DNA from: Planctopirus limnophila DSM 3776
GTDB lineage: Bacteria; Planctomycetota; Planctomycetia; Planctomycetales; Planctomycetaceae
DNA: 32,000 bases
NCBI RefSeq assembly: GCF_000092105.1
Contig: NC_014148.1
Span: forward strand, 3,900,001 to 3,932,000
Direction of reading: 5' to 3'
Numbering within the stretch: position 1 is the stretch's first letter; each line of letters begins with the position of its first letter. The notes beneath the pieces are model-generated. The model did no database searches. It was not told where the DNA came from and worked only from the letters and a program-made list of their open reading frames with translations. Shown in pieces: positions 4,317-22,210 of the stretch. The translations under genes and the position numbers were made by a program.

Positions 4317-5666
4317 ATGCCCTCTTTTCTGCACGTAGCCGACCTGCATCTCGACAGTCCGAGAAGTGGACTTTCCCGCGATGCCAGTGCCCCGGTTTCT
4401 GAAATTCAGCAGGCTCCTCGCAGAGCACTCGAGCGATTGATTGACGAAGCCTTAAGGCGAAAGGTTTCCGCAGTCGTGATTGCTGGCGATCTTTACGATG
4501 GCGACTGGAAAGACCACCAGACGGGTCTCTTCTTCGTGAGGCAGGCCCAGAAGCTGGCCGACGCCAGGATCCCGGTGGTGATGATCACCGGCAATCACGA
4601 TGCCCAGTCAGTCATCACCCAGCAGCTTCCTTTACCCCCCAACGTGAAAGTTTTAAGTGTCGATGCACCCGAGACATTCCTGCTCGAGGATTGCGGTCTG
4701 GCACTGCATGGGCAAGGTTTCAAGAACCGGGCCGTGCCGCAGAATCTGTCGGCGAACTATCCCGCTAAAATCAACAGCCTCTTGAACATAGGGCTCCTGC
4801 ATACGTCGCTGACAGGCTTCGAAGGGCACGAAGTTTATGCCCCCTGCAGCTTGAGCGATCTGGCCCGGACCGGCTACGAATACTGGGCCTTAGGCCATAT
4901 TCATAAGCGGCAGGAATTTCCTCTGGCCAGTGGCGGGATGGCGGTTTTTCCAGGAAATCTGCAGGGGCGCCATATTCGTGAATGCGGGCCCAAAGGCTGC
5001 GAAATCATCGAGTATCAACCGAATGGAATTCTCCAGCGAGAGTCAATTGTCCTCGATGTCTTTCGTTGGGAACTGCTTTCGATTTCAGTGGACGGATTAT
5101 CTTCCCGAGACGAAATTCTCGCACTGATTGAAGATCACCTGCGCGCTTTTCGCACTTCCGCAGATCCCCAACCACATGCCCTGCGCATCGAACTGATGGG
5201 GGCCACAACTTGTCATGGTCAGCTCATCGACCGCCAGCGGGAACTTCGTGCCGAAATTCAGAGCCTGGTGGTACAGTCAGGAAGTGGCAACTGGTGGCTC
5301 GAAGACCTTTCGCTCCGCACAACTTTTCCAGAGGCATCCATCGATGCCGCTTTGACCAGTGCTGCCTCTCAGGAATTGCTGGCATTGGCCCGGTCGGAAC
5401 TGCAGGCAGCCCATTCCTCTCCCGAACTGCATCGTCTGATGCAAAACCTGACTGAGGATTTGCGGAAGAAGCTCCCTGCGGAAATCTCGTGGAGTGATGT
5501 CCTTGGCCCCACCTCTTCGCACGCTGCAGGCTCTACGACAAACCAGGCATCAACTAATGCTGGAATCGAGTGGAGTCCACTCCTGGAAGAATCTTTAGCA
5601 CTTCTTTCGGCTCGGTTGGAGCAGCCCCAGACACAAGTCTCCACAGGTCGAAAGGGGCGGTCATGA
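4317..5666 (+). CDS. SbcD/Mre11-family metallophosphoesterase (YhaO/SbcF-like DNA exonuclease subunit)
   Basis: Calcineurin-like phosphoesterase motifs in canonical order: VADLHLD, AGDLYDG, TGNHD, GLLH, GHIH. The stop overlaps the start of the next gene (ATGA at 5663-5666). Confidence 0.85.
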   Translation: MPSFLHVADLHLDSPRSGLSRDASAPVSEIQQAPRRALERLIDEALRRKVSAVVIAGDLYDGDWKDHQTGLFFVRQAQKLADARIPVVMITGNHDAQSVITQQLPLPPNVKVLSVDAPETFLLEDCGLALHGQGFKNRAVPQNLSANYPAKINSLLNIGLLHTSLTGFEGHEVYAPCSLSDLARTGYEYWALGHIHKRQEFPLASGGMAVFPGNLQGRHIRECGPKGCEIIEYQPNGILQRESIVLDVFRWELLSISVDGLSSRDEILALIEDHLRAFRTSADPQPHALRIELMGATTCHGQLIDRQRELRAEIQSLVVQSGSGNWWLEDLSLRTTFPEASIDAALTSAASQELLALARSELQAAHSSPELHRLMQNLTEDLRKKLPAEISWSDVLGPTSSHAAGSTTNQASTNAGIEWSPLLEESLALLSARLEQPQTQVSTGRKGRS

Positions 5667-8600
5667 GGATTGCTTCACTCCATCTGGAAAATGTCGGCCC
5701 ATTCCGCAAGACGACCTGGAACCTCGATCCATCCCGAGGTTTTCAATTGTTTATCGGGCCCAATGAGGCGGGCAAAAGTACCGCACTCAGGGCCCTGGCT
5801 GATGCTCTGTACGGCTTTCCTCATACCTTGCCGGATGGTGAGTCCTTTCAACCTTATCGGGATCGTCGTGTTGGTCTCTCTTTGATCAGCGATGATGGCC
5901 AGCAGCTCCGTTTTCTCCGCCGCAAAGCAACCAAACAGGCCTTGCGTGGCCTGGATGACAAAACGGTGGTCGACGAAGCCGAATTGAGCCGGTGGCTGCA
6001 ACAGGTGGATCGTACCCGCTTTGAACAGTTCTTCGGGCTTGACCATGCCCGGCTGGTTCAAGGTGGTAACGAACTGCTCAACTCGAAAGGAGATATCGGG
6101 ACCATCCTCTTCGCAGGTTCTCAGCTACAAGGAGCACCGCAGATTCTTGAAGCGCTGTCCCAGGAGGCAGCCAGCCTGTTCGCCCCTCGAGCACAGAATC
6201 CCCCCATCAACAGCCAGATCCGCCAACATGCCGACCTGATTGCCAAAGTCAATCAGTTGATGGTCAAGCCACAGGCCTGGCGCGACGTTCAAACCGAGTT
6301 TGATCAGGCAAGTACCACCAAAGACAAGCTGCAGTCACAACTCAAAGAGCTGGAAAAACGAGTCAGCCATCTGGCGAGGCTCAATGCCGCCTGTACTCCG
6401 GCCCGGCAACTTCGGCAGATCAGGCAGCAACTGAAAAGCTATGCCGACTTGCCCATGCTCGATGAAGAATTTTTTGAAAAGGTGGAAACTGTTCGCCAGA
6501 AGATCTTCAGTGCTGCTCACGAGCAACGAGTCAAGCTCGACGAATTGCAGCAATTGAAATCCACCCTCGATCAATTGCCTCCTGTCGAATCGATCTGGCT
6601 GGAACACGAAAGCACCATTCGCGAACTCGTCGAAACACGCGGATCAATTCAAAAGGCCCGCAAAGACACTCCCAAAGTTCAAAAAGAGCTGCTTCTGGCA
6701 AAAGCCAGACAACAGACCATCCTCGATCAGTGGAAATGGGCTCCTGCGGATCAATCCGCTTCGATCCCCAGGAGACTCCGTAGAGAGCTCGAAGCACTTC
6801 AGGCCGAGTGGCTGGTACTCTCCGAACGCAAAAAAGCACTGACAGATCGTGCACAGGCCCTGGCCAAAACCACAGCCAGAATTGCCAGCGAACCAGTCGA
6901 TCGTCGAGAGACGTTGCGGCAAGAGCTGGCGAAAACTCAAGCGACGCTGCAAACAGCCGCTTCACTGCTCGAAGCCGATCAGAAGATCAGAACTCTCCGC
7001 ATCAGCCAGACGACACTCGAACGAAACGTCGCCCAGGCCTGGCAGAAGCTTGAACCACAAACGCTCATGAGCCAGTGGGCGGAAGCACACACACTTTCGG
7101 AACAGATCGCACTGCTCTCGTCAACGAACATTCCCCCTCACGACGTGATCGAACAGTTCCGCGAAGAAATCGACACCTGGCACCAACAGGTCCTCTCAGC
7201 GGTGGCCGCTCTCGAAAAAGCACGGCTCGAACAGTCACACGCCATCGAAGAGCGGCAACGACTGCGCACATTGATTCTGCAAGCCACGCCCGAAGATCTG
7301 GCCGCCGCTCGAAGTGAACGTGACCAGCTCTGGGCAAAGTTCCAGCAACAACTGGAAAGTGAACCGCGACCAGACCATCAGCAGCTGATCGAACAGGCTC
7401 AGATCGTGCAGCAATCCATACAGCAGGCCGATCAACTGGCTGATGCACTCTTCAAGCAGGCCACCAATGTCTATCGCGATCAAGAGCTGGCCCTGCGAAC
7501 GGAGCAACTCTCAACTTCCATCCAGCAACTGCAAGAGCGACTCACCACCCAGAAAGATCTCGAAAGCCAGGCAGTTCATCGCTGGGAAAACTTGTGGAGT
7601 TCAACAGGCATCTCGCCCCGATCCCCTCGCGAAATGCTGGTCTGGTCTCGCATGGCACACGAGTTGATCGAACTCGGCGAAAAGCTCGCGGCAATCAACG
7701 ACGAACTCACCGCTCACGATCAACAGTGCGAAATCTTCTGCCACCAGTTCGACACTTCACAGAGCATCGAGTCCGATGCTCCCGAACCTCAACCTTTGCC
7801 CACAATTCATGCACGGCTCAAGATCGACGACCAGAACCTGCTGGAAAGAATTCGTGCTGCGGACCTGCTCGAACTCGACAGGCAACGTCTGAATGATGAT
7901 CAGACAGCCTATCAACACGATCTCGAAGCCTGGCAATCGACCAGCCAGGAGTGGGAACTCCGGTGGAAAGCCGCCATCCTGGCCACTGGCTGGGAAGAGT
8001 CGACCACACCCGATGAACTCGCGGAGTTGTTAGAACAGTTTCAACTTCTTGAGCAGACACAGAACTCAATTCAAAAGCTCGAGGAGAGACTCTCGGGTAT
8101 GGCCGAAGATGAATCGACCTTTCAGGAACAGATCTTCGATTTTGTCCGCACGTCGATTCCCCTTGAAGCCGAGAACCTGATTGCCAGCTTCCCGCCCGTT
8201 GAACTTTCGCAAGCCATCGAGACTCGACAAAATTCCGCCCGCGTGCAGCAGGCTCAATATCAACAGCAGCAGGCCACTATCGAGCGTCTGACTGCCGCTG
8301 TGGAACAACTGGGTGATGCACTGGAACTTGCCCAGGAACAACTGAACCAGGCTCTCAGGCAGGCCAGGCTCAAAGAACCCTCCGAATTGACGGCACTGCG
8401 AGAGAAATGCCGCCTTCGTAGAAAACTGATCGATGATGCCGTTCACCACGAACTCGAACTGGCCCGGCAATGCGGTACCAATTCGGTCGAAGAGCTGATT
8501 CAGCAGGCACTCGAAGTCGACCCAGCGACACTCCCTCCGGAAATTGAATCACTCGGACAGGAAATCAGTTCCTTAAGAGAGCAATTGGGACAAGCGACGG

Positions 8601-9220
8601 CGCGCCTGGAAGCCGCCCGCCTGGCATTGGCAGGCATGAGTGGAGAATCGAAAGCGGCGGAATTGAATGAAGAAGCCAGTGATCTTCGCCGGCTGATTAT
8701 ACAGGATAGCCGGGAGTATCTGCGATTAGTGACTGCCGCCGAGCTCTTGCGATCCGCGATCAAAACCTATCGAGAGCAGCATCAGGGGCCGGTCTTTGCC
8801 CTGGCTGCGTCGATCTTTACACGCATGACGGGCGGTGTGTTTGAAGGTTTGCAGATTGATTCCGAGGATGGTTCTCAAGAACTGCTGGTGCGTTGTCACG
8901 ATGGGCGCACGCTGCGAGTGACTGAACTTTCGACAGGCACCGCCGACCAGCTCTTTCTGGCCATCCGGCTGGCGTGGATTGAAGAGTACCTGCATCAGCA
9001 CCCCCCCTTCCCGCTGGTGCTGGATGATGTGCTGGTGCAGTTCGATGATGAGCGCACGCGTTATGCCCTGGAGGTGCTGGGAGAACTCTCTCGCCGCACT
9101 CAAATCCTGTGCTTCACGCATCATGAACACCTCAAGGAACTGGTCGAACAGACGCTGGAACCCGACCAATACGAGATCCACTCCCTCCAGCGCCTTCGCA
9201 CACCTCCTTTCAAGAGCTGA
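5663..9220 (+). CDS. SMC/Rad50-like AAA ATPase with long coiled coil (YhaN/SbcE-like), 1185 aa
   Basis: I prefer the internal ATG at 5663 (MRIASLHLENVGPF...) because it overlaps the upstream stop as ATGA and sits just before the N-terminal Walker A GPNEAGKST. About 900 aa of heptad-like Q/E/L-rich sequence follows. The C-terminal end has an ABC signature-like LSTGTADQL, Walker B LVLDDVLVQFDD and H-loop FTHH. Confidence 0.85.
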   Translation: MRIASLHLENVGPFRKTTWNLDPSRGFQLFIGPNEAGKSTALRALADALYGFPHTLPDGESFQPYRDRRVGLSLISDDGQQLRFLRRKATKQALRGLDDKTVVDEAELSRWLQQVDRTRFEQFFGLDHARLVQGGNELLNSKGDIGTILFAGSQLQGAPQILEALSQEAASLFAPRAQNPPINSQIRQHADLIAKVNQLMVKPQAWRDVQTEFDQASTTKDKLQSQLKELEKRVSHLARLNAACTPARQLRQIRQQLKSYADLPMLDEEFFEKVETVRQKIFSAAHEQRVKLDELQQLKSTLDQLPPVESIWLEHESTIRELVETRGSIQKARKDTPKVQKELLLAKARQQTILDQWKWAPADQSASIPRRLRRELEALQAEWLVLSERKKALTDRAQALAKTTARIASEPVDRRETLRQELAKTQATLQTAASLLEADQKIRTLRISQTTLERNVAQAWQKLEPQTLMSQWAEAHTLSEQIALLSSTNIPPHDVIEQFREEIDTWHQQVLSAVAALEKARLEQSHAIEERQRLRTLILQATPEDLAAARSERDQLWAKFQQQLESEPRPDHQQLIEQAQIVQQSIQQADQLADALFKQATNVYRDQELALRTEQLSTSIQQLQERLTTQKDLESQAVHRWENLWSSTGISPRSPREMLVWSRMAHELIELGEKLAAINDELTAHDQQCEIFCHQFDTSQSIESDAPEPQPLPTIHARLKIDDQNLLERIRAADLLELDRQRLNDDQTAYQHDLEAWQSTSQEWELRWKAAILATGWEESTTPDELAELLEQFQLLEQTQNSIQKLEERLSGMAEDESTFQEQIFDFVRTSIPLEAENLIASFPPVELSQAIETRQNSARVQQAQYQQQQATIERLTAAVEQLGDALELAQEQLNQALRQARLKEPSELTALREKCRLRRKLIDDAVHHELELARQCGTNSVEELIQQALEVDPATLPPEIESLGQEISSLREQLGQATARLEAARLALAGMSGESKAAELNEEASDLRRLIIQDSREYLRLVTAAELLRSAIKTYREQHQGPVFALAASIFTRMTGGVFEGLQIDSEDGSQELLVRCHDGRTLRVTELSTGTADQLFLAIRLAWIEEYLHQHPPFPLVLDDVLVQFDDERTRYALEVLGELSRRTQILCFTHHEHLKELVEQTLEPDQYEIHSLQRLRTPPFKS

Positions 9221-9254
9221 AAACGCCTCATTCGACTCTGGCAATAGCTTGTGA

Positions 9255-9413
9255 ATAGAGATTCCAATACGTGAACCTGTCGCTCAGTCCGAGTTGGTGG
9301 GTTGCGCAAAGCCTTACCCCACCCTGATTGCCGCTATGAGAAAGCTCCTGACCATCCTCAACGCCATGATTAAAAATCAAACCCCATGGAAAAATCCCGC
9401 ACCAACAGCTTGA
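9255..9413 (+). pseudogene. C-terminal remnant of an IS110-family transposase
   Basis: My own translation of the frame ending at TGA 9411-9413 gives ...LVGCAKPYPTLIAAMRKLLTILNAMIKNQTPWKNPAPTA*. The (A/C)MRKLLTILNAM..(Q/G)TPW tail is the characteristic C-terminus of IS110/IS1111 transposases. An in-frame stop at 9252-9254 leaves only about 50 codons, so it is a fragment. Confidence 0.6.
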
Positions 9414-9559
9414 TTCTCAAGACAGTCGCTACCTGTCTATTCTTACGCGAAGGCGCGAAGATCTCGAAGGAATGGCGACAACGTGTGGGTGCCTCCAGCG
9501 AAAACATGCCCGGTCATTTCATGCTGCAGTTCAGCATGCATTTAGCTGCCTGAATGGAA

Positions 9560-9587
9560 TTGACAGCGAAAACCCACAAGATAACCT
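9560..9587 (+). promoter_or_regulatory. Candidate sigma70-like promoter for the TIR gene
   Basis: TTGACA (9560-9565), 16-nt spacer, TAACCT (9582-9587), about 45 nt upstream of the ATG at 9632. The -10 element matches TATAAT at only 3 of 6 positions, and promoter rules for this lineage are uncertain. Confidence 0.25.
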
Positions 9588-9631
9588 AAACGCTGTTCAC
9601 TTAGATAAGATTTTAACGTTTGGGAAAGGCA

Positions 9632-10603
9632 ATGAATTCAGCCAATCGAAAGAAGGTCGCAGTAATCACTTCATATGTTCAGCAATCATTTTCCGAAAGT
9701 GATTGGTACGCGATTGGGCAGCTTACAGGTCAACTCAACACAATCTCAGGTCACTCGAGGCTCTTGCGAGCGTTGAATTTTGGAGACGACGACTATTCTG
9801 GTTGCGCAGCGGAAGTTCTTGACAGAATCTTCTCCGCAAATGAATCGGCCATTGATGAGGTGATCGACCACTTCGACATCGACCTTTGGTACCAGCAGAA
9901 AAGTCCTGAAAAGTACAACAGACTGTTCTCCGCCGCGGCCTCGTCCTCTGCGGACTTTTGGAAAAGTGGTTTTCTTAAGTTATTCGTTAGCCATCTTTCA
10001 TCCAATAAGACTCGAATGTCTGCACTCAAAGCTGGGCTGGCGACTTGGGGAATTTCAGCCTTCATCGCACACGAAGATATCGAGGCATCTCGTGAATGGA
10101 GGGATGAAGTCGAAGCCGGCTTGGAAACGATGGATGTGCTTGCGGCCGTCGTAGAACCAGGATTCAAGGAATCAGATTGGTGCGTACAAGAGGTCGGTTA
10201 CGCCCTAGGCCGCAAAATCGATGTAATTCCACTACGAGCAGGATTAGACCCTTTTGGTTTCTTTGGAAAGTTTCAAGGAATTCAGATCAAAGGGCGACTT
10301 CCCGAGCAGGTGGCATGCGATATTACACAAGTTCTTCTCAAGAAACCTCAATATAGAGAGAGGCTCATCCAAAGCATATCAATAGCCTTTTCAACACTGG
10401 CTTCCGAGAAAAAGATCGAAAATATTAACACGCTAGACGAATGGTCGATTCTTACCGACATTCAGTTGAAAACTGTGGTCGAGCAAGCCGCGATGTCAGG
10501 GGCTGAGAAGCAAGCGGCGAAGAATCTGATCGCTCGCATTGGAGCATTCAAAGCAGCAGAAGTCGAAGTCAACCTGCCTGACGACGATGACATTCCGTTT
10601 TGA
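9632..10603 (+). CDS. TIR-domain protein (ThsB-like candidate) with unassigned N- and C-terminal regions
   Basis: Central region LFVSHLSSNKTRMSALKAGLATWGISAFIAHEDIEASREWRDEVEAGLETMDVLAAVVEPGFKESDWCVQEVGYALGRKIDVIPL fits the bacterial TIR pattern (F-[IV]-S-[HY]...; F.D.dI..g..W...I; then S.WC..E). The candidate catalytic Glu is in WCVQE (codon 10190-10192). I prefer the ATG at 9632, preceded by GGAAAGG, over the TTG at 9620. Confidence 0.75.
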   Translation: MNSANRKKVAVITSYVQQSFSESDWYAIGQLTGQLNTISGHSRLLRALNFGDDDYSGCAAEVLDRIFSANESAIDEVIDHFDIDLWYQQKSPEKYNRLFSAAASSSADFWKSGFLKLFVSHLSSNKTRMSALKAGLATWGISAFIAHEDIEASREWRDEVEAGLETMDVLAAVVEPGFKESDWCVQEVGYALGRKIDVIPLRAGLDPFGFFGKFQGIQIKGRLPEQVACDITQVLLKKPQYRERLIQSISIAFSTLASEKKIENINTLDEWSILTDIQLKTVVEQAAMSGAEKQAAKNLIARIGAFKAAEVEVNLPDDDDIPF

Positions 10604-10754
10604 CAGCGAAGCGAATCACGTTGAGTGGAATACGATAGTTTCAATTGGCGGCGTATCGCTGGTCACTGGAATTAAATAGCGGACGGCATCTAAGTTTTTT
10701 GCGATCCATCCAAATGAGAATTCTCTTCTAAGAAATGCAAAGGTATTTGAACAT

Positions 10755-12080
10755 ATGGCGGAGCGCAGACATCGTTTTGAAGGCTTGGTGCCAGAAATGC
10801 TCATACAGAGTATCCGCGATCATCGGTGCGTGCTTTTCGCTGGCGCCGGGATGTCAGCCCAAGCTCAAACTCAAGACGGCACACGCCTCCCGACTTGGAG
10901 TGCTCTGCTCGAGCGAATGCTGAACTGGTGTATCGATCATCGAGTTCCACTTCGGGCTGATCCAGCAGAGTTCAAAGAGGTACTGAAGCGTGGGAGGTTG
11001 CTCGTTGTTGCTCAAGAACTTCAGCAGAGTCTCGGTAGCCAGCTAAACACTTGCTTGTCAGCAATTCTCCATACCGGCAAGACAACACCAAGTGAAGCAC
11101 ATCGTTTGGTATCGAGAATTGATTGGGTTGCTGCGCTTTCGTCTAACTATGATGGACTGATTGAAGGGGCCTATGCACTTGAAACTGGTGGCATCGTCCC
11201 ACCAGTTTTCTCTCCTGCCGGAATTGGTCAGGCTCTCGATTGCCTTCGAAGTAACCGCTTCTTCGTCTTGAAAGTGCATGGCGATGTCAATCTCCCCGGC
11301 TCAATAGTGTTAAGCAACCGAGACTATTCAAGACTTCTATATTTGAGCCCCGGCTACCGATCTTTTCTTGAATCTATCTTTTCAAACTATACCGTTCTAT
11401 TTGTAGGATTTGGCGGGAATGATCCAGATCTTGATGGAATAGTGGATAGACTATCCACAATCTACGAACATAGTATCGGACAGCACTTCATATTGATTTC
11501 TGAGGATGAATTTACTGCGCTCGAACGTAGGCGTCTACTTGAAGACAAGCGCCTAGACTGCATTACGTATCGACGGGATGCCTCACATTCACAAGTCGTC
11601 GAATTTCTTTGGGCGCTGTCACAGCGGTTAACTTCAAAGGCAGTCGTTAACACGCCGTTTGCTAAAGACGAGAACAAACAACGCGCGTTCATATCTGGGA
11701 GTTCTCGACAAATAGGCATGCTTCGCGAAGTGGCCGAGATAGCAAGGCAGGTAGGCTTTGATGTGTGGTACTCCGAGACAGAGATCGCTGTGGGCGATCG
11801 TTTGGTTGATGTGATCGCCAAGTGTATCGACGAGGCGGACTGTTTCATTGTTATTCTGTCAAAAGAGTCAGGGGAGTCTTCTTGGGTTCACTTTGAAATC
11901 GGCAGGGCCTTTGGAGCGCACAAAAAGGTGTTTCCAATCCGCATTGGTGATGCTCCTGTACCCTCAGACCTGATGAACGTTGTCTACCTGCAAGTCAGCG
12001 AGCCACCATTTAACGCTGAAGATAAAGAAAAAATCATGATGAACCTGGCGAGATTTCTTAAGCCCACGAAATCTAGCTAG
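10755..12080 (+). CDS. SIR2-family (SIR2_2-like) NADase domain fused to a C-terminal TIR domain
   Basis: N-terminal part: CVLFAGAGMS (Rossmann glycine loop), LPTWSALL, SSNYDGLIE (Asn131, codon 11145-11147), VLKVHGDV (His175, codon 11277-11279) and LFVGFGGNDPDLD, which are the defining motifs of ThsA/DSR-type prokaryotic SIR2 domains. C-terminal aa ~310-415: RAFISGSS...GFDVWYSETEIAVGDRLVDVI...ADCFIVILSKESGESSWVHFEIG, a TIR pattern with the conserved Glu381 (codon 11895-11897). Confidence 0.8.
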   Translation: MAERRHRFEGLVPEMLIQSIRDHRCVLFAGAGMSAQAQTQDGTRLPTWSALLERMLNWCIDHRVPLRADPAEFKEVLKRGRLLVVAQELQQSLGSQLNTCLSAILHTGKTTPSEAHRLVSRIDWVAALSSNYDGLIEGAYALETGGIVPPVFSPAGIGQALDCLRSNRFFVLKVHGDVNLPGSIVLSNRDYSRLLYLSPGYRSFLESIFSNYTVLFVGFGGNDPDLDGIVDRLSTIYEHSIGQHFILISEDEFTALERRRLLEDKRLDCITYRRDASHSQVVEFLWALSQRLTSKAVVNTPFAKDENKQRAFISGSSRQIGMLREVAEIARQVGFDVWYSETEIAVGDRLVDVIAKCIDEADCFIVILSKESGESSWVHFEIGRAFGAHKKVFPIRIGDAPVPSDLMNVVYLQVSEPPFNAEDKEKIMMNLARFLKPTKSS

Positions 12081-12283
12081 GCACTCACCTTCCGCGTCAG
12101 GCCCACCGCTCGCTTCCCACACTCCCTTGAACTCCACCGTCTTGACGCAACATCCCATCCAGCCAACCCGTGGCATTCCGCTTGCCGAGTACGATATACT
12201 TGGTCTTTCTGAACGGATTGTCATGATGGGCTGAGCGTCTGTTGGTCGTGTTCGCAGTGGCGGGATGGTCACGGGAGGGGAGC

Positions 12284-13954
12284 ATGGAGGAGCGTTCGAG
12301 GCTGCCGATCAGCATGCCGTCGTTTTTGACCGATTCCCGCGTGCTGCCGAACTCCATCGCGGCGGAGCAGCTTGCCGCCGAAAGACAGGCCACAGAGCGA
12401 CTTGCTCAGGAACAATCCCCCGCCCGGCTTGGGGTGGCCTGGCGGGAGTTGCTGGCGGTTCTGCTGCTGGTCGTTCTGGGCGATCTCACCCTCTACCGGG
12501 GCCACGGGTTTGGCGGGTATGCCCTGCTGCTCGCGGCGGCTCCGCTGGCACTGCTCCTGGGTGCCGCCCGGCATCAACGCCCCTGGCAGGTCCTCGCCGC
12601 CACGGTCATGATCTGGGGAGCCGCCCTCCGGCTGGCGTGGTGCGGCAACTGGCTCGCCTTCGCACTCGGTGGCGTACTCCTCATCTGCCTTTCCACCAGT
12701 CTTGCCGGTGCCGGGATGTATTTGGGAGATGTCCTCAGGTGGCTGGCTTCGTTCATTCCCAGTCTCTTTCGCGGCCTGGCCGATTACGAAGCGACCTTCC
12801 GTCAGCGGGTGAGCCTCCGCTGGGGATTGCCGGCCCAGGCGATCCTGTGGGCCTACCTCCTCCCGCCGATTTGCGCCGTGATCTTTCTCGGGCTGTTCAT
12901 CCAGGCCAACCCCGATGTCTCGCTCTGGGTTCAGCAACGCCTGCTCTCCTTTCAGGAACTCTGGTCGCAGGTCTGGTCAATCATTGGTTCTCCCTATCGG
13001 ATGGGCTTCTGGCTGATCTGCGGCTCCGTGGCGATCGGACTCATGCGGCCGCACCTGATGACCCTCTATGAGGTCTTTCAGACAGAACCATTGGAAGACT
13101 TGAAGGTTGATAACACATCGCGGACCGATCTCTACCCCGCCTATCGCAATACGATCCTCGTGCTGATTGTCCTCTTCGCGATGTATCTCGTTTTTGAATT
13201 CGTGACGATGTGGACGCGGACCTTCCCGCCGGGCTTCCACTATTCGGGGTATGCGCATGAAGGGGCCGCCTGGCTGACAGTGGCCTTGGCGCTGGCGACG
13301 ATCATGCTGTCGATCATCTTCAATGCCTCGATGATGACCGACCCGCGCATGCCCGCACTGCGGAACCTGGCCATGATCTGGGCGGCAGAGAACATCCTGC
13401 TGGCGCTGGCGGTCTACAACCGGCTCTTAATCTATGTCGGCTTCAACGGCATGACGCGAATGCGGGTCGTGGGGATATTGGGTGTCACCAGTGTTCTGGC
13501 GGGAGTGGTGCTGGTGATGATCAAGATTTCGCGGGGGCACAGCTTCGGCTGGCTGCTCAAGAATCAGATCTTCGTGGTGGCTGTCGCTGCCTACCTATAT
13601 GCCGTGCTGCCAGTGGATGGCTGGGTAATGACCTACAACGTGCGGCAGGTGCTGGTGGGCAACCTTCCACCCAGCGTGCAGATTGCCCACCATCCCACCA
13701 CGACCGAAGGCTGGCTGGCACTGCTCCCCCTGCAACAGGCCGAGAACCAAGTCATTCGCGAAGGGGTGGTCGAAATGTTGACCAATCACGAACGCCGCCT
13801 CAAAGACGTAACGCCCATCGACTGGACGGCCCGGCAACTGGCGGACGAACAGTTCCTGCGAGCCGTGGCACTCCCTGAAAACGATAGCTTGCGAAAGCCG
13901 ATCAAGCCCGGCGCGGAAGACCGGTTTCGCTCGTTTTCGTTTCAGTGGTATTAG
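12284..13954 (+). CDS. Large polytopic membrane protein (possibly DUF4153/DUF4173-like, from memory only)
   Basis: At least 10 hydrophobic helices. I prefer the ATG at 12284, preceded by GGGAGGGG, over the TTG at 12242. G+C is very high (43/60 in the sampled line 12481-12540), and this produces long spurious ORFs in other frames. Confidence 0.7.
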   Translation: MEERSRLPISMPSFLTDSRVLPNSIAAEQLAAERQATERLAQEQSPARLGVAWRELLAVLLLVVLGDLTLYRGHGFGGYALLLAAAPLALLLGAARHQRPWQVLAATVMIWGAALRLAWCGNWLAFALGGVLLICLSTSLAGAGMYLGDVLRWLASFIPSLFRGLADYEATFRQRVSLRWGLPAQAILWAYLLPPICAVIFLGLFIQANPDVSLWVQQRLLSFQELWSQVWSIIGSPYRMGFWLICGSVAIGLMRPHLMTLYEVFQTEPLEDLKVDNTSRTDLYPAYRNTILVLIVLFAMYLVFEFVTMWTRTFPPGFHYSGYAHEGAAWLTVALALATIMLSIIFNASMMTDPRMPALRNLAMIWAAENILLALAVYNRLLIYVGFNGMTRMRVVGILGVTSVLAGVVLVMIKISRGHSFGWLLKNQIFVVAVAAYLYAVLPVDGWVMTYNVRQVLVGNLPPSVQIAHHPTTTEGWLALLPLQQAENQVIREGVVEMLTNHERRLKDVTPIDWTARQLADEQFLRAVALPENDSLRKPIKPGAEDRFRSFSFQWY

Positions 13955-16727: not shown

Positions 16728-17066
16728 ACTTACCCCAGTCGCTATTATGTCCCAGAGAAGTCAGGCCCTTCGTTGAAGCGCAGGTCGGCCTGATGTGCTA
16801 CTTTTGTCGCTTGAAGCGAATATCTCAGGCGATCTTCGTTCAACGTTTCTAAGCAAGACATCACAATCGCTCATTATTTTCTTTCCCGTATACTTCTGAT
16901 ACACCTTTCAATACCCGAGCATCACTCATTCGTCGTAAGATTTCGAGAATGTCATACCAATCCATTGAACCACATCTTCGTACCGACCACAGCGGTGCCA
17001 ATCGAGATTAATCAGGAAGAACGCGTTGAGACTTCTTGAGACAAACACTATTTCACGAATTATTAC

Positions 17067-18566
17067 TTATCGATAGATCTGGCAGATCCTAAGCAGACAC
17101 AACAGAGGGTCGTCCGCTGAAAGTTTATCTATCCGTTCTATAACCTCTGAATCAATTGGAACACAATCCTTGAGAACATTAAGAACCTGGAAATACTCTA
17201 ACTGTTGGTACAGGCAGAATCTCAGTAATCGAAAACGAAGTGACTGATAATAAAAATGCCACGATTTCAGTCCAGAACGAAGCACTGGGTCACGAATGAG
17301 ATGGCGACGGATCTCATCACCATCCAGAGCAATGTAATGACCACACTTACTTAACCACAGTTGTTCAATTTTGACTTTTATCGCCTGAAACCAAATAGTC
17401 CCCTTATCCCGCAATATTTCCAGACATAGAAGCGTATCCTGCGGATTAATCAATAACTGTAATAGAAGTTCGTCAACCATTTCATTCTGGAGCGTCTCAT
17501 TCTCGTATTCCATTTCAAAAGCGACTTTAAGGCACATTCGGCATAGAGATCGAACGGATTGTGATGCCTTCACGATAGATGGGTTCGTGAAACTCAGTTG
17601 CTCAGAGCTTATAAGAAGACAATCTGCACGATCCAAAAGATGATCACCATAAAACCCACTAACAGTAAACTCACTCAGAGCACTTTTACAGTGTTGAATA
17701 AGCTCGTCTTTCTGAACTGGTTCATAAACAATCAACATCTCCAATAAACAGACAATGATAGCTAACCAATAAGAACAGTCATCCACAAGCATTTCATCAA
17801 GTCGATGAAACTCTTGAATAACTATTTCGTCTTGATCCCTCTTAAAATACAACTGCCATCGCACTCGCAGAAGCTGTGTTTGAAGTGTACGAAACGCAGG
17901 ATCCAATATCAGCTTCCAAAAATCTCTTCCTGTGGTTAATTCGGGGTGATTCGAACACTCCCTCGTCAACAGCCGTTGAGACTGTAAGCTCAAGCCATAC
18001 TTCAATGCATAACTCAACAGCAGATTCAGAGATGTCGTCGATGAATCTAAATGCGGCTGAAGCGTCAGCAACCAGTATCTTTGCAGCATCTCCCGCTCAA
18101 TATGAGGATGAGTCAGACTTCTTCGCGAAAGAACTTCGTAAGCAAGATCGACTTTCCCGGATTTCGCCAATTGCCACGGATCACTATCAAGACATGACAG
18201 ATATGAATGATCTGCGTCCTTGACAGAAGCTTCCATACCTCTAAAAGCATCTTTTGAATCACACTCAAGGATAACTTCATCTTTAAATGGACGAATCATA
18301 TCAGGAGTCTGCATTTGCTCGCCGAGAAGAAGAGCAAAATCGTCTGATCGTTTTTTCGCATCAGCATAGGGAAGAAGTACCTCATACGCCTTCCGAATCT
18401 TCTGAAAGGCCTCAGCGTCGATTTCAGGCCGAAACCGCTTAATCAGCTTTGAATAGACCCGCTTTAGATCACCACTTGAAAATGATCGTCCCATCCCCAT
18501 TAACTCCCAGGGATTTTCTGGCCACTTCGAGAAATCATCAGGGAGCGAGTGAGCATCGGTACCCAT
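17067..18566 (-). CDS. J-domain-like protein, module 2 (HPD replaced by RPE), DjlB/DjlC-like size
   Basis: N-terminal NPWELMGMGRSFSSGDLKRVYSKLIKRFRPEIDAEAFQKIRKAYEVL aligns to DnaJ helices I-III (DYYEILGV...IRKAYKRLAMKYHPD...FKEIKEAYEVL), with RPE (18423-18431) at the HPD position. About 430 aa of helical C-terminal region is homologous to the paralog at 19767-21272 (EREMLQRYWLLTL, DPWQLAK and others). I prefer the ATG at 18566 over the GTG at 18578. Confidence 0.8.
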   Translation of the reverse strand: MGTDAHSLPDDFSKWPENPWELMGMGRSFSSGDLKRVYSKLIKRFRPEIDAEAFQKIRKAYEVLLPYADAKKRSDDFALLLGEQMQTPDMIRPFKDEVILECDSKDAFRGMEASVKDADHSYLSCLDSDPWQLAKSGKVDLAYEVLSRRSLTHPHIEREMLQRYWLLTLQPHLDSSTTSLNLLLSYALKYGLSLQSQRLLTRECSNHPELTTGRDFWKLILDPAFRTLQTQLLRVRWQLYFKRDQDEIVIQEFHRLDEMLVDDCSYWLAIIVCLLEMLIVYEPVQKDELIQHCKSALSEFTVSGFYGDHLLDRADCLLISSEQLSFTNPSIVKASQSVRSLCRMCLKVAFEMEYENETLQNEMVDELLLQLLINPQDTLLCLEILRDKGTIWFQAIKVKIEQLWLSKCGHYIALDGDEIRRHLIRDPVLRSGLKSWHFYYQSLRFRLLRFCLYQQLEYFQVLNVLKDCVPIDSEVIERIDKLSADDPLLCLLRICQIYR

Positions 18567-18665
18567 TATTACCTGCACGCCAGAGGCACCATCACATTAC
18601 GAAAACACAAACTAACTGCACCATACTGACACTAAGACTTGAACCACTATCAATCTGGGAAAGGA

Positions 18666-19472
18666 TCAACAAAGCCAGATAAACAGTACCGAACCTGCCA
18701 ACAAAATGATCGCAACAAAAACAACACAAGTCTTACTTACTACAAACTCCTTTTTGCGATGAGTCCAGGTGCCCCCCCATTCCGGATCAATGACATCAGG
18801 AAAATATTTGCGATGCCAATGGCTTGGATTGTCCGAATGTAATAACTCGCCAAACCAGTCTCCACCAAGCGATGCGAGCTTCGGATCAATCCTTCTCAAC
18901 TTTTGCGACTCAGCCTGCCACTCCATCGGCTTATCAAAGAATACATCGATTTTCTTGCGATAGAAGTCCCCCTTCTCGGTGGGCCACGTGACATACGAAT
19001 TCAGGATACATTTGCCCAAATACTTGAGGTGCACTGATCCGAGATGATTGATTTCAGAGTTGATATCGAGCCCGCGTTCAAGATGTTCCAGCAGTCGCTT
19101 CAAGCGTAGGTGTGGCTGACACAAAGGCCTCAACCGCTCATACTCCCGTTTACGATCCTTCGGAGGGTAACCTAAATAGCGAGAAAAGAAACTGCGAAGT
19201 TCCACCTCAACCTGGGCTTCATTGAGCTGCTCCCAGTGCGATCGATCAGTCGGCGTCCATAATGTCTCCGGCTTTCCCGCCAGATACTTAACGGCATGAT
19301 CTAATGCCTCATTACTTGTAAATCCAGATTTCTCCAACGCGCTTAAAGCAACGGCTTGTATATCATCCACTTCCGCTCCTGTTTCCAGGCCCAGAACAGA
19401 CCTCCCCCAGGCGAGATGGTGCTCATCGATCACAAAATTGTCTCTGGTTTCAGGTAGAGGATCGTTATCCAT
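18666..19472 (-). CDS. Tail-anchored hypothetical protein, module 2 (paralog of 21404-22210)
   Basis: 268 aa. A soluble, mostly helical body is followed by a single C-terminal TM helix (CVVFVAIILLAGSVLFIWLC) at the extreme end. Roughly half the residues are identical to the module-1 copy (AVKYLAG.PETLW, EYERL.PLC.PH.RLKRLL.HLERGL, TWPTEKG.FYR.KI, DP.LASLGG.WF.ELL). Confidence 0.75.
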   Translation of the reverse strand: MDNDPLPETRDNFVIDEHHLAWGRSVLGLETGAEVDDIQAVALSALEKSGFTSNEALDHAVKYLAGKPETLWTPTDRSHWEQLNEAQVEVELRSFFSRYLGYPPKDRKREYERLRPLCQPHLRLKRLLEHLERGLDINSEINHLGSVHLKYLGKCILNSYVTWPTEKGDFYRKKIDVFFDKPMEWQAESQKLRRIDPKLASLGGDWFGELLHSDNPSHWHRKYFPDVIDPEWGGTWTHRKKEFVVSKTCVVFVAIILLAGSVLFIWLC

Positions 19473-19766
19473 TCTGATGAACTTTCATGAATCGATAATT
19501 GAGATTGCTTTCAGCAAAGAACACTCCGACATGATTCCTTATACTATTACCTCAACTTCCCTCATCGCGCTGGTAAGTTTGTTGTCCACTCAACAAGGTT
19601 CTAGATTGCATTTTTTATAAAACTTACTGATCGTTGGGACTCTTTAACACTTTTCTACTTCACTCCCCGTAGTGTACCCTGCATTCAAGCTACATTACAA
19701 TCCGATAAATAGCGGCATATTCCCCATCATATAAGCTTGAGAAGACGATCATCGACAGGGCTCTTT

Positions 19767-21272
19767 CTAAATACCGATCTGACATGCCTGAACCAGGCTG
19801 CGCAGGGGTTTATCTTTGAGCAACATGTCGGCCCGGGGTGTTGTCGCTTTATTGGAGATTTCGATCATCTGCAGTACAGGGACCAGTTTTGTCATGTCAA
19901 TACAGTGCACGAGACAGAATCGCAGGACGCGTCCTCGCAATGAGTTGTAGCTGAATTGCGATGCGGACATCAGACCCATAAGAACCGTATCGCGCTGGGC
20001 CTCGCTTTTCAGTCCCTCAAATTCAAGGGCTTCGTACTGTGAATATTCTTCATACCAGAGTTGATAGATCGCTTGACTGAGTATCTGCAGCCAGGGTGCA
20101 CCTTTTTTCAACAGCTCATCCAGGCACATCAGTGAACTCTGCGGGTGATTCACAATCTGATCGATCAGTGGCAACAAAATCTCCCGCCTGCGCGGGCTTT
20201 CGATATGTTCCAACTCAGTAGCGACCTCCAGACAGCGACGATAAAGAAAACGGATCGATTTAGAGGTTCTGACGAGTGATGAAGGCGAGCGAAAGAAGTC
20301 ATGGTAATTCGATATCAGATAGTCTGCCCGATCAAACAATTCCTGTTGATGAACCCCTTGTGATTCCAATTCTTTCAGAAGGGTCTGGCAGCGGTCAAAC
20401 ATCGGCTGACGCAAACGGGGATGATAGACCACCACCAGTTCCAGCAGTTGGATCACAATCGTTAACCATTGAGCAGGATCGTCGAAATACTGCGATTCCA
20501 GTTCTTCAAACTCCTGCAGCACAACTTCATCGCCGTCGTCTTTGAGAAGCCCTTTCCACCTCAGACGTAACAACGAGAGACGGAAACTCTGGTTGTAGCG
20601 GCCTGAGATCAGCTTCCAGATCTGGTTTTTCATCGCCAGTTCCGGCCGGTTCGACACTTCAGCCAAGAGCAATCGCTCCACCTCATCACTCAATCGATAA
20701 GTGATGGCGAAATTCAGAAGTTGATCATAGGCCGTTGTCGAACGATCCAGCTCGGGATGAAGTGTCAGCAACCAGTAGCGCTGCAGCATTTCCCGCTCAA
20801 AATGAGGTCTCGTAAAACGTCTTCTGGCAAGTTCGGCATACGCCTTCTCATATTCACCCGCCTTCGCCAGTTGCCACGGATCGACATCTCGGTGAGCCTG
20901 CCGCCGATGGTGGGATCTCTGGGATGATGATTCATGTCCCGCGTCGTCATGTTCAGGAGTCTCGGCCGAATGATCTTCTGCCGAAGTGCCATCATCCTCG
21001 ACGGATTTCTCATCCGTTGTTTGAAGATGATTCCATATCAGATGGGCCACGGCGGCAGTGTCCGCATCGGCATCGGCGTAATGCTGCAAGGTTTCATACG
21101 CCTGCCTGACTTTTTGAAATGCTTCCGGTGCCGATTCGGGGCGATATCGTTTAATTAACCGCGAGTACGCCAGCTTTAACTCTTTTTTGGTAAATGATCT
21201 TTCCATCCCCAGAATCCGCCAGGGATCTTGAGGCCATTGGGAAACATCGTCCGGTAAAGAGTCCATATTCAT
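19767..21272 (-). CDS. J-domain-like protein, module 1 (HPD replaced by RPE), DjlB/DjlC-like size
   Basis: N-terminal DPWRILGMERSFTKKELKLAYSRLIKRYRPESAPEAFQKVRQAYETL has a J-domain helix II, loop and helix III pattern, with RPE (21135-21143; I verified the codons cgc ccc gaa on the minus strand). An acidic, His-rich linker is followed by a helical domain homologous to 17067-18566. Confidence 0.8.
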   Translation of the reverse strand: MNMDSLPDDVSQWPQDPWRILGMERSFTKKELKLAYSRLIKRYRPESAPEAFQKVRQAYETLQHYADADADTAAVAHLIWNHLQTTDEKSVEDDGTSAEDHSAETPEHDDAGHESSSQRSHHRRQAHRDVDPWQLAKAGEYEKAYAELARRRFTRPHFEREMLQRYWLLTLHPELDRSTTAYDQLLNFAITYRLSDEVERLLLAEVSNRPELAMKNQIWKLISGRYNQSFRLSLLRLRWKGLLKDDGDEVVLQEFEELESQYFDDPAQWLTIVIQLLELVVVYHPRLRQPMFDRCQTLLKELESQGVHQQELFDRADYLISNYHDFFRSPSSLVRTSKSIRFLYRRCLEVATELEHIESPRRREILLPLIDQIVNHPQSSLMCLDELLKKGAPWLQILSQAIYQLWYEEYSQYEALEFEGLKSEAQRDTVLMGLMSASQFSYNSLRGRVLRFCLVHCIDMTKLVPVLQMIEISNKATTPRADMLLKDKPLRSLVQACQIGI

Positions 21273-21403
21273 CAGTGATTTCAGTTGAATTGTTGTGAAT
21301 CGTCTTTACACGATCTGCCATAACTATATAGATCGCCGATCAATCTTCGCAGATCATTGTTTATCGAATTGTTATCATTCGACAGCACTCCTTGATGCGT
21401 CAG

Positions 21404-22210
21404 CTAGCGATTGATCAATACGGAAATCAGACTGATAACAAACAGGATCGCGGTGATCAGGCAGCCCCATTGATCAAAAAACGAAGCTTTTTGGGGTGTG
21501 ACCCACTGTAGCCCGGTATCTTTCTCTGCCAGATCTGGAAAGTGCATGCGGTACCAGTAGTGAGGATCCTGGATGTTGAGTAACTCCTGAAACCAGTTGC
21601 CTCCCAGAGAAGCCAGCCTGGGGTCTTGTCTTTTCAACATCTGCGCAGCAGCATGCCATTCGTTCGCTCGATCAAAGAGAACTACGATTTTCTCTCGATA
21701 GAAATGTCCCTTTTCGGTAGGCCAGGTGGTATAGGATCGGAGAATACAATCGCCCAGATACCGCTGATACTCTGTTCCCACATGATCGACATTGAGGCTG
21801 AGATTCAGCCCACGCTCAAGATGGTTCAGCAGACGTTTCAGTCGCGGATGAGGTTCGCACAAGGGCTTGAGCCTCTCGTACTCATGCTTTCTCAATTGCG
21901 GCGGAAGGCTGTAGTAGCGGCTGTAAAATTTACGAAGGACCTGCTCGGTTTCTTTTTCCGTGAGCTGCTGGGAATGTGCGTGGTCTGCGGCTGTCCATAA
22001 TGTCTCCGGCCCGCCCGCCAGATATTTCACGGCTCGGTCAAAATCGGCATGCCCTTCAAAATCGGCGGTTTCCAGAGTTTTTAAGGCCCGGGTCGCGCAG
22101 ACGGTGGCATCGAGGGAGGGTTCCAGATCGAGGTAATTTCTTGCCCAGGCTCGATGATGCTCTTCCACCTGCAGGCTCTTACTCGTCGGATGGAGAGGTT
22201 CCGTAGTCAC
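21404..22210 (-). CDS. Tail-anchored hypothetical protein, module 1 (paralog of 18666-19472)
   Basis: The track ORF runs to 22312, but that N-terminal extension lies inside the Hsp70 gene. The in-frame GTG at 22210 gives 269 aa and aligns residue-for-residue with the 268-aa paralog (His18-His19 in both). C-terminal TM helix CLITAILFVISLISVLI. An alternative GTG start lies at 22168. Confidence 0.72.
   Translation of the reverse strand: MTTEPLHPTSKSLQVEEHHRAWARNYLDLEPSLDATVCATRALKTLETADFEGHADFDRAVKYLAGGPETLWTAADHAHSQQLTEKETEQVLRKFYSRYYSLPPQLRKHEYERLKPLCEPHPRLKRLLNHLERGLNLSLNVDHVGTEYQRYLGDCILRSYTTWPTEKGHFYREKIVVLFDRANEWHAAAQMLKRQDPRLASLGGNWFQELLNIQDPHYWYRMHFPDLAEKDTGLQWVTPQKASFFDQWGCLITAILFVISLISVLINR

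Follow-up and report, generated by a model that had tools for sequence, protein, structure and literature searches.

A TIR protein with an SSB-type acidic tip beside a SIR2-TIR fusion in a low-G+C islet of Planctopirus limnophila

Do two adjacent genes of Planctopirus limnophila, one encoding a TIR-domain protein and the other a SIR2 domain fused to a second TIR domain, form a dedicated signalling pair of the Thoeris kind, or do they only share a site? The question was raised by a stretch of 32,000 nucleotides (the window; contig NC_014148.1, positions 3,900,001 to 3,932,000, forward strand), to which all positions below refer. The source genome is that of P. limnophila DSM 3776, and the two genes, called gene A and gene B here, are Plim_3017 and Plim_3018 (both 100% identical). 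They are carried by a 2.8 kb islet of low G+C and were delineated from open reading frames (ORFs), Pfam matches and AlphaFold2 models as follows.

9632..10603, plus strand: gene A (Plim_3017), 323 aa, with an AbiJ_NTD5 domain, a TIR domain, a helical C-terminal domain, a disordered linker and an acidic tip of the type found in SSB (the protein that binds single-stranded DNA)
10755..12080, plus strand: gene B (Plim_3018), 441 aa, with a SIR2 domain of the ThsA/SIRim type and a C-terminal TIR domain

A first-pass annotation, made from the letters alone, had described the two as a Thoeris-like two-gene cassette. Its observations and domain interpretation were correct: the co-oriented ORFs and the gap of 151 nt between them were confirmed, and the Pfam search gave TIR_2 in gene A and SIR2_2 with TIR_2 in gene B. 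The system-level interpretation is not supported, because the genes are not syntenic elsewhere, an outcome that had been named beforehand as refuting it. Each gene is a variant, so far uncharacterised, of a known kind. The reading favoured here, with moderate confidence, is that two independent, horizontally mobile, autonomous single-gene modules that deplete nicotinamide adenine dinucleotide (NAD+) lie side by side and form no dedicated signalling pair.

Conservation of the gene pair

Gene B loci were collected with a profile (A1) of 22 SIR2-TIR proteins, which yielded 80 genomic loci, including 20 full-length homologues at 33-70% identity. The gene B loci counted below number 24 and span 33-80% identity; the closest homologues of gene B are those at L081, L082, L129 and L132. 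For gene A, 36 loci were taken from a metagenome scan and 9 from other sources, and 27 were non-redundant. Gene A was searched for by tblastn, as a whole and in three parts. It was found in none of the 80 SIR2-TIR profile loci, was absent within 10 kb of the 20 full-length homologues, and did not occur beside the closest homologues at L081 and L082 (~76% identity), L129 (80%) or L132 (77%). Gene A was present at 0 of the 24 gene B loci and, conversely, a SIR2 gene was present at 0 of the 27 non-redundant gene A loci, a survey result that speaks against the cassette. All-against-all comparison of the flanking ORFs returned no recurrent neighbour of either gene. The genes surrounding the closest homologues of gene B were:

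L129 (80% identity to gene B): a TIR-transmembrane protein and a lipoprotein-like ORF precede the SIR2-TIR gene
L132 (77%): a SLFN_AlbA_2 protein precedes the SIR2-TIR gene
L082 (76%): an ORF of 99 aa precedes the SIR2-TIR gene
L081:217-5243 (75-76%; upstream sequence limited to 216 nt): the SIR2-TIR gene is followed by a CAP12/Pycsar-type TIR protein of 302 aa and then by a SIR2-TPR protein of 868 aa

Three NADase-type genes stand in a row at L081. Four gene A homologues (76-84% identity) were solitary among unrelated genes, their neighbours being SLT and acetyltransferase, PLD and histidine kinase, Mrr and 5'-nucleotidase, and PIN/MazE and RIO1. Over the whole survey, part of the neighbours at gene B loci were type I or IIG restriction-modification, PD-Lambda-2_B, PDC-M32A, type II Thoeris, SLFN_AlbA_2 and SIR2-TPR genes, and part of those at gene A loci were Mrr, PIN/MazE, Cas6, HerA and SAVED-HNH genes. 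A promoter and terminator scan of positions 9200-12400 detected nothing promoter-like and a single intragenic site resembling a terminator, a lower yield than in shuffled sequences, and has no bearing on co-transcription. Adjacency in a single genome does not amount to a system, and the naming of a new Thoeris type would misdirect experiments.

Domain structure of gene B

The two domains of gene B were placed as follows.

10755..11639, plus strand: SIR2 NADase domain, residues 1-295 (SIR2_2, E 2.6e-29)
11688..12005, plus strand: TIR domain, residues 312-417, at the position of the SLOG domain in ThsA (TIR_2, E 1.1e-15)

The NYD and KVHG motifs of the SIR2 domain are intact, as the first-pass annotation had it. 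Asn131 is encoded at 11145-11147 (NYD, N131-D133) and His175 at 11277-11279 (KVHG), and all 60 gene B homologues compared have N131, D133 and H175. The catalytic-type glutamate of the TIR domain, Glu381 (11895-11897, within SSWVHFE), is conserved in at least 90% of homologues; it is replaced by Ala in P0013, P0083 and P0084, and the relatives P0100, P0113 and L016-L018 carry another C-terminal domain. Because the SIR2 catalytic residues never vary while the TIR glutamate and the C-terminal domain do, this pattern suggests that the SIR2 domain is the core effector and that the C-terminal domain occupies a regulatory position.

An AlphaFold2 model of gene B was obtained with a predicted local distance difference test score (pLDDT) of 87.5 and a predicted template modelling score of 0.89. 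In Foldseek searches of the PDB, the top matches were to full-length ThsA, including the filament bound to 3' cyclic adenosine diphosphate ribose (3'cADPR; 8BTP/8BTO), with E values of 8e-16 to 1e-13 over ~460 columns, and the SIR2 domains of KomC, DSR2 and Avs5 came next. Profile searches with the SIR2 part matched ThsA (6LHX, 1.8e-25), human FAM118B (1e-18; residues 12-294, window positions 10788-11636), KomC and DSR2, and those with the TIR part matched the TIR domains of BtTir/AbTir, Cat1, TIR-STING and PdTIR. Since ThsA is the best match by both fold and profile and the TIR part matches TIR domains, gene B is described here as a ThsA-like sirtuin with a TIR domain at the SLOG site.

The claims that no SLOG, Macro or STING sensor is recognisable and that the pair matches no named system were both upheld. 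Neither gene gave a Pfam match to SLOG, Macro, STING or SAVED. The PADLOC ThsA model PDLC00407 matched gene B in part (1.3e-20, residues 16-344, covering only positions 13-318 of 478 in the model), and the NCBIfam scores for Dsr2 (25.1 bits) and Dsr1 (21.9 bits) were far under the cut-offs of 1400; no model in either collection describes a SIR2-TIR architecture, and a full-text search of a literature library found no paper that names it. The family comprises more than 100 clusters at 90% identity, is constant in length, and ranges over Planctomycetota, Aminicenantes, Chloroflexota, Acidobacteriota, Syntrophobacteraceae, Nitrosomonas, Bacteroidota and one Methanobacteriaceae archaeon. A recent duplication of the two TIR domains was considered and rejected, because those of gene A and gene B are only 18% identical. 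SIR2-TIR proteins are thus widespread and uncharacterised, and their mode of activation would show whether TIR domains regulate or assemble sirtuin effectors, a question that also bears on the animal SIRanc/TIRAP link.

Domain structure of gene A

The start of gene A was set at ATG 9632 in place of the listed TTG 9620, because all homologues begin with MNS or MDS there. Four parts were distinguished.

9632..9907, plus strand: AbiJ_NTD5, an all-helical N-terminal domain, residues 1-92 (Pfam PF18865, E 4.4e-32, full profile covered)
9983..10291, plus strand: TIR domain, residues ~118-220 (TIR_2, E 1e-12)
10301..10540, plus strand: helical C-terminal domain, residues 224-303 (helices in the model, pLDDT ~90)
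10541..10600, plus strand: variable disordered linker and acidic tip DDDDIPF, the tip at 10580-10600 (pLDDT ~50)

The AbiJ_NTD5 domain, modelled by AlphaFold2 with helices at residues 3-98, is presumed to be a sensor or a partner-binding module. The TIR domain holds the catalytic-type Glu187 at 10190-10192, within SDWCVQE (E191 when numbered from 9620), as had been claimed; none of 53 close homologues or 54 distant tail-bearing relatives departs from it. In a PDB fold search this part matched the TIR domains of SARM1, BtpA, SpbK, AbTir and SPARTA. The helical C-terminal domain is conserved jointly with the TIR domain in relatives that have other N-terminal domains. Neither the N-terminal nor the C-terminal helical domain gave a PDB fold match, and the gene A profile, searched against PDB sequences, returned nothing but the Cat1 TIR domain (E 0.011). 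The best score against ThsB models was only 4.7e-4. Mean pLDDT of the whole model was 79.5.

No HEPN or Abi_C match was found in gene A by Pfam, the effector position being held by TIR_2. Gene A looks like an effector-swapped AbiJ, because AbiJ_NTD5 otherwise heads AbiJ-like proteins with HEPN effectors and Taranis offers a single-gene precedent. Taranis is a validated single-gene system with a HEPN effector, and its N-terminus is distantly related to AbiJ_NTD5 (bioRxiv 10.1101/2024.07.02.601686). The gene A family (379 matches) is constant in length and, judged from its alignments, unusually conserved: alignment columns average 75-77% identity, and gene A has 84% identity to its closest homologues from metagenomes and 82% to one from a metagenome-assembled genome of Methyloversatilis (Betaproteobacteria). 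Both the AbiJ_NTD5 domain and the acidic tip had been overlooked in the first-pass annotation.

The SSB-type tail

The most unexpected result is the presence of an SSB-type tip on a large family of TIR proteins. Gene A ends in ...LPDDDDIPF, which resembles the C-terminal tip of SSB. An acidic run with an [IVM]PF-like ending was present in 120 of the 120 gene A homologues listed, 104 of which close with IPF, DFDDDIPF being the most frequent final octapeptide; the ~15 residues that precede the tip vary. The tip is retained in relatives at 44-56% identity. A TIR protein of a Klebsiella IncFIA plasmid (L133:3740-4672), 51% identical over gene A residues 109-261, has a different N-terminus and has only the TIR and C-terminal domains in common with gene A, yet it ends in ...SDDIPF.

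The wider family was sampled by searching gene A residues 105-323 against 1.84 billion cluster representatives (50% identity clusters). This yielded 3315 relatives, 170 of them with E <1e-30. Among the 150 best representatives of the 50% clusters, 67 (~45%) end in [ILVMTAS]PF, mostly preceded by an acidic run. TIR_2 was detected in all 54 tail-bearing proteins of this wider family, with E187, P322 and F323 invariant, and their N-terminal domains differ and are mostly without annotation. The annotation of a relative on the Candidatus Megaira plasmid pMegNEIS296 (L134:3605-4690) closes it at an in-frame stop; the frame goes on for ~39 codons to ...NDEEIPF, which would mean read-through, an error of sequencing or a pseudogene of recent origin.

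The hexapeptide DDDIPF is the conserved C-terminus of SSB and binds its many partners (PMC5872125; PMC10018359), and a phage SSB-like protein with FDDDIPF has been connected with SbcB and with the activation of DRT10, a defence system (bioRxiv 10.64898/2026.04.29.721553). A literature search found no paper that links the SSB tip to TIR proteins. Gene A gave no SSB or OB-fold Pfam match, and its model consists of helical, TIR and helical domains; since it is without an OB fold, it is taken to mimic the SSB tip and not to be an SSB. Conservation of the tail suggests that TIR activation is tied to the SSB interactome. The tip may serve as a tether to SSB-tip-binding proteins, as a bait for SSB-docking phage proteins, or as an autoinhibitory element.

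A bolder and doubtful proposal is that this large unnamed bacterial TIR family uses its copy of the SSB tip as bait or tether: SSB-docking proteins that bind several tails would cluster the TIR domains and thereby elicit NAD+ cleavage, and in Planctopirus the clusters might also seed co-assembly with the TIR domain of the SIR2-TIR neighbour. If this were true, the docking proteins taking the bait would be phage recombinases, SSB-like proteins or exonucleases, and a TIR immune sensor would have an explicit trigger mechanism; co-assembly with gene B would amount to a bacterial form of signalling from a TIR adaptor to a sirtuin, an echo of FAM118B and TIRAP in animals. To our knowledge, what bacterial Thoeris-type TIR sensors detect is largely unknown. 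The tip-bearing family points to replication or recombination proteins that read the SSB tip as what is sensed.

Comparison with known systems

Type I Thoeris (ThsA, SIR2-SLOG; ThsB, TIR) resembles the locus in that gene B has a SIR2 domain of the ThsA type, keeps the catalytic Asn and His, and adjoins a TIR gene. It differs in that the C-terminal SLOG domain of ThsA binds 3'cADPR, whereas gene B has a TIR domain there, and in that ThsB is a conserved operon partner, whereas gene A is not conserved beside gene B and a TIR gene of any kind accompanies it at 5 of 20 loci. The type I effector is switched on by a cyclic ADPR isomer that a TIR protein produces. In the accessible part of a 2025 preprint that surveys Thoeris (Yirmiya et al.; 10.64898/2025.12.03.692087), type I is given as SIR2-SLOG and type IX as comprising effectors with TIR and SLOG, stand-alone TIR proteins were discarded, and no SIR2-TIR effector is listed in text or tables. 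Type IX (ThsB with ThsJ), as represented in that part, sets a precedent for a protein with a TIR domain that acts downstream of another TIR; ThsJ senses through SLOG and is without SIR2, whereas gene B has SIR2 and is without SLOG (Table S2 of the preprint).

AbiJ and Taranis share with gene A an AbiJ-type N-terminal domain (AbiJ_NTD5 in gene A), the layout in which a variable N-terminal domain precedes the effector, and the solitary gene. Their effector is a HEPN RNase, whereas gene A has a TIR domain, an extra helical domain and the SSB-type tail. SSB and SSB-like phage proteins have the identical acidic-tip motif at the extreme C-terminus, also behind a variable disordered linker; in SSB it follows an OB fold, the core that binds single-stranded DNA, whereas in gene A it sits on a TIR enzyme. 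Both TIR domains have the fold of catalytic NAD+-cleaving TIRs and the glutamate of the S-x-W-x-x-x-E motif, from which activity is predicted.

DSR1/DSR2, SIR2-STAND (Avs5) and KomC are like gene B in that an N-terminal SIRim-type SIR2 NADase is placed under the control of a C-terminal module and of oligomerisation. They have large C-terminal sensors or separate partners, whereas gene B has only a TIR domain of 130 aa; DSR1 and DSR2 measure ~1000-1200 aa against 441 aa, and gene B did not match them over their full length. FAM118B (SIRanc) has a SIRim-type SIR2 as well, and forms filaments. In 73% of metazoa its gene is found two genes away from that of TIRAP, a TIR adaptor, and it takes part in Toll-like receptor signalling (bioRxiv 10.1101/2024.09.18.613514). 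There SIR2 and TIR are separate genes of an animal pathway, whereas gene B is one fused bacterial protein; by analogy, the bacterial fusion is a possible 'Rosetta stone' that fits a functional SIR2-TIR link, in parallel to FAM118B and TIRAP.

Interpretation

We infer NADase activity, an anti-phage role, triggers and a tail function for the two modules along the following lines. Gene A would be a one-protein system in the style of AbiJ, with AbiJ_NTD5 joined to a TIR NADase in place of the HEPN RNase of AbiJ. Its tip would dock onto proteins with an SSB-tip pocket, either host enzymes of replication or repair or SSB-hijacking proteins of phages; gathered on a partner of this kind, or on complexes bound to single-stranded DNA, the TIR domains would come together in an active form that cleaves NAD+. 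Gene B would be a ThsA-like SIR2 NADase in which a TIR domain replaces the ligand-sensing SLOG. Self-association of this TIR domain would lead to oligomerisation or a filament and switch on the SIR2 domain, so that sensing and NAD+ depletion would be combined in one polypeptide. TIR enzymes are activated by self-association, and ThsA-type SIR2 domains are reportedly activated by oligomerisation (structures 8BTO/8BTP, attributed to Tamulaitiene et al.); it is because of these two properties that TIR-driven assembly is proposed as the switch of gene B. Autonomy is supported by the size and constant length of each family, by the lack of a recurrent neighbour, and by the single-gene precedent of Taranis.

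Several observations weigh against two autonomous defence modules. The genes are co-oriented in one islet with nothing between them, and look like an operon. TIR genes of other types were found within 3 kb of the SIR2-TIR gene at 5 of 20 non-redundant loci, versus none of the 27 gene A loci (Fisher p 0.01 when every detection method is counted, 0.07 with the one method common to both sets). Such genes occur beside the SIR2-TIR gene at L081 and L129, described above, and at L009 and L011, and at L019 a complete type II Thoeris system lies two genes away:

L009: a TIR-HisKA-HATPase_c fusion downstream of the SIR2-TIR gene
L011: a TIR gene of 257 aa, 9 nt downstream of the SIR2-TIR gene
L019:7321-11326 (Bacteroidia): ThsB (173 aa), ThsA-Macro (306 aa), an unknown gene of 352 aa, and the SIR2-TIR gene

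One neighbour of a SIR2-TIR gene gave a strong ThsB match (PDLC00424, 8e-103) and could not be assigned to a locus. By analogy with ThsA and its diverse ThsB proteins, SIR2-TIR proteins may have a tendency to act together with a TIR partner that varies. Housekeeping genes surround many homologues of both genes, so that a defence role is putative.

A true lineage-specific Thoeris-like pair would build on the first of these observations. Gene A would be the infection sensor, and its TIR domain would either make a signal derived from adenosine diphosphate ribose, bound by the TIR domain of gene B in place of SLOG, or nucleate a mixed assembly of TIR domains by which gene B is recruited and its SIR2 turned on, in the manner of the cooperative assembly in Toll/MyD88 signalling. 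The likeness of gene B to ThsA, with a Foldseek alignment over the whole length of ThsA and a TIR domain at the SLOG position, fits such a pair, as do the diverse and interchangeable TIR partners known from Thoeris; a TIR-containing effector has a precedent in ThsJ of type IX, with TIR and SLOG in the part of the survey cited (bioRxiv 10.64898/2025.12.03.692087). Yet pairing was absent at every gene A and gene B locus surveyed, ~75% of the SIR2-TIR genes stand without any TIR gene nearby, gene A occurs by itself at all its other sites, and no known ligand sensor is present in gene B. The TIR genes close to SIR2-TIR are of mixed kinds, and their excess may reflect mere defence-island clustering or a loose partnership with interchangeable TIRs. 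These two are not separable, and for that reason a functional pair is kept as an unlikely alternative.

Still less probable is a role outside immunity, in which gene A would be a replication- or repair-linked factor that consumes NAD+ or signals through ADP-ribose and is recruited by its SSB tip, gene B a regulatory NADase of cellular signalling, and the islet a site of mobile cargo. The conservation of gene A (given above) is unusual for a defence gene, gene A is often found among housekeeping genes, and the tip suggests host DNA metabolism. Histidine-kinase, response-regulator or Hpt genes flank SIR2-TIR or SIR2-only relatives at L002, L005, L009, L018 and L022; this link was rejected, the excess being unconvincing for such abundant families and perhaps due to chance in kinase-rich phyla. 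On the other hand, the patchy spread across phyla, the foreign composition and the relatives on plasmids are in keeping with mobile genes for defence or toxins, and the characterised relatives with this motif set (ThsA, DSR2, KomC, SpbK, AbTir, SPARTA) are all NAD+-depleting immune effectors. That one or both genes are inactive remnants beside a dead insertion sequence, as the transposase-like frame upstream and the in-frame stop in the Megaira relative might indicate, is most improbable: both ORFs are full length, start and end as their homologues do, and keep every invariant residue.

The islet and its surroundings

The composition of the islet is foreign. Its G+C of 0.48 compares with 0.55 on the upstream side and 0.62 on the downstream side, and G+C at third codon positions is 0.47-0.49 in the islet genes versus 0.58-0.78 in the flanking genes. 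The AT-rich islet of the first-pass annotation was borne out, and a recount of its sampled lines gave identical G+C values (23/60, 36/60 and 43/60). The annotation had also placed a transposase remnant next to the islet.

9288..9395 (approximate), plus strand: short frame resembling the C-terminus of IS110-family transposases, a remnant (tblastn, weak support)

An IS110-like frame is indeed present at the upstream edge of the islet, which makes a remnant plausible. The support is thin: the frame at ~9288-9395 (...YPTLIAAMRKLLTILNAMIKNQTPW) matched annotated IS110-family transposase C-termini weakly (54% over 37 aa, E 4e-3, tblastn against plasmids), and Pfam gave no match to it. A repeat search for the islet boundaries identified no direct repeats and no insertion scars, and returned just three short imperfect inverted repeats, all within coding sequence. 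A phage origin was rejected, with essentially zero homologues among 50,697 phage records.

The surroundings differ from those of a classical defence island. The neighbours, annotated from Pfam matches, are:

Upstream of the islet: an ABC transporter
4317-9220, directly upstream of the islet: an SbcCD/Mre11-Rad50-like pair, consisting of a metallophosphoesterase of 449 aa and an AAA_27/SMC-type ATPase of 1216 aa
Downstream of the islet: a DUF4153 membrane protein

The ATPase probably starts later than 5570, because the two longest ORFs of the pair overlap by 97 nt. It gave weak PADLOC matches to mad3 and AriA; the 'mad3/mad8' matches there were rejected as unrelated P-loop proteins. A link between the ATPase and gene A was likewise rejected, no similarity to gene A neighbours elsewhere having been found.

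A second stretch of low G+C was seen on the minus strand at 17067-23933 of the window (0.41-0.48 over 17000-21500). It contains two proteins of ~500 aa whose sole match is an N-terminal DnaJ domain, and ORFs of 268 and 302 aa without matches. A 584-aa Hsp70 gene stands at its edge, which makes this an unusual, foreign-looking Hsp70/J-protein cluster.

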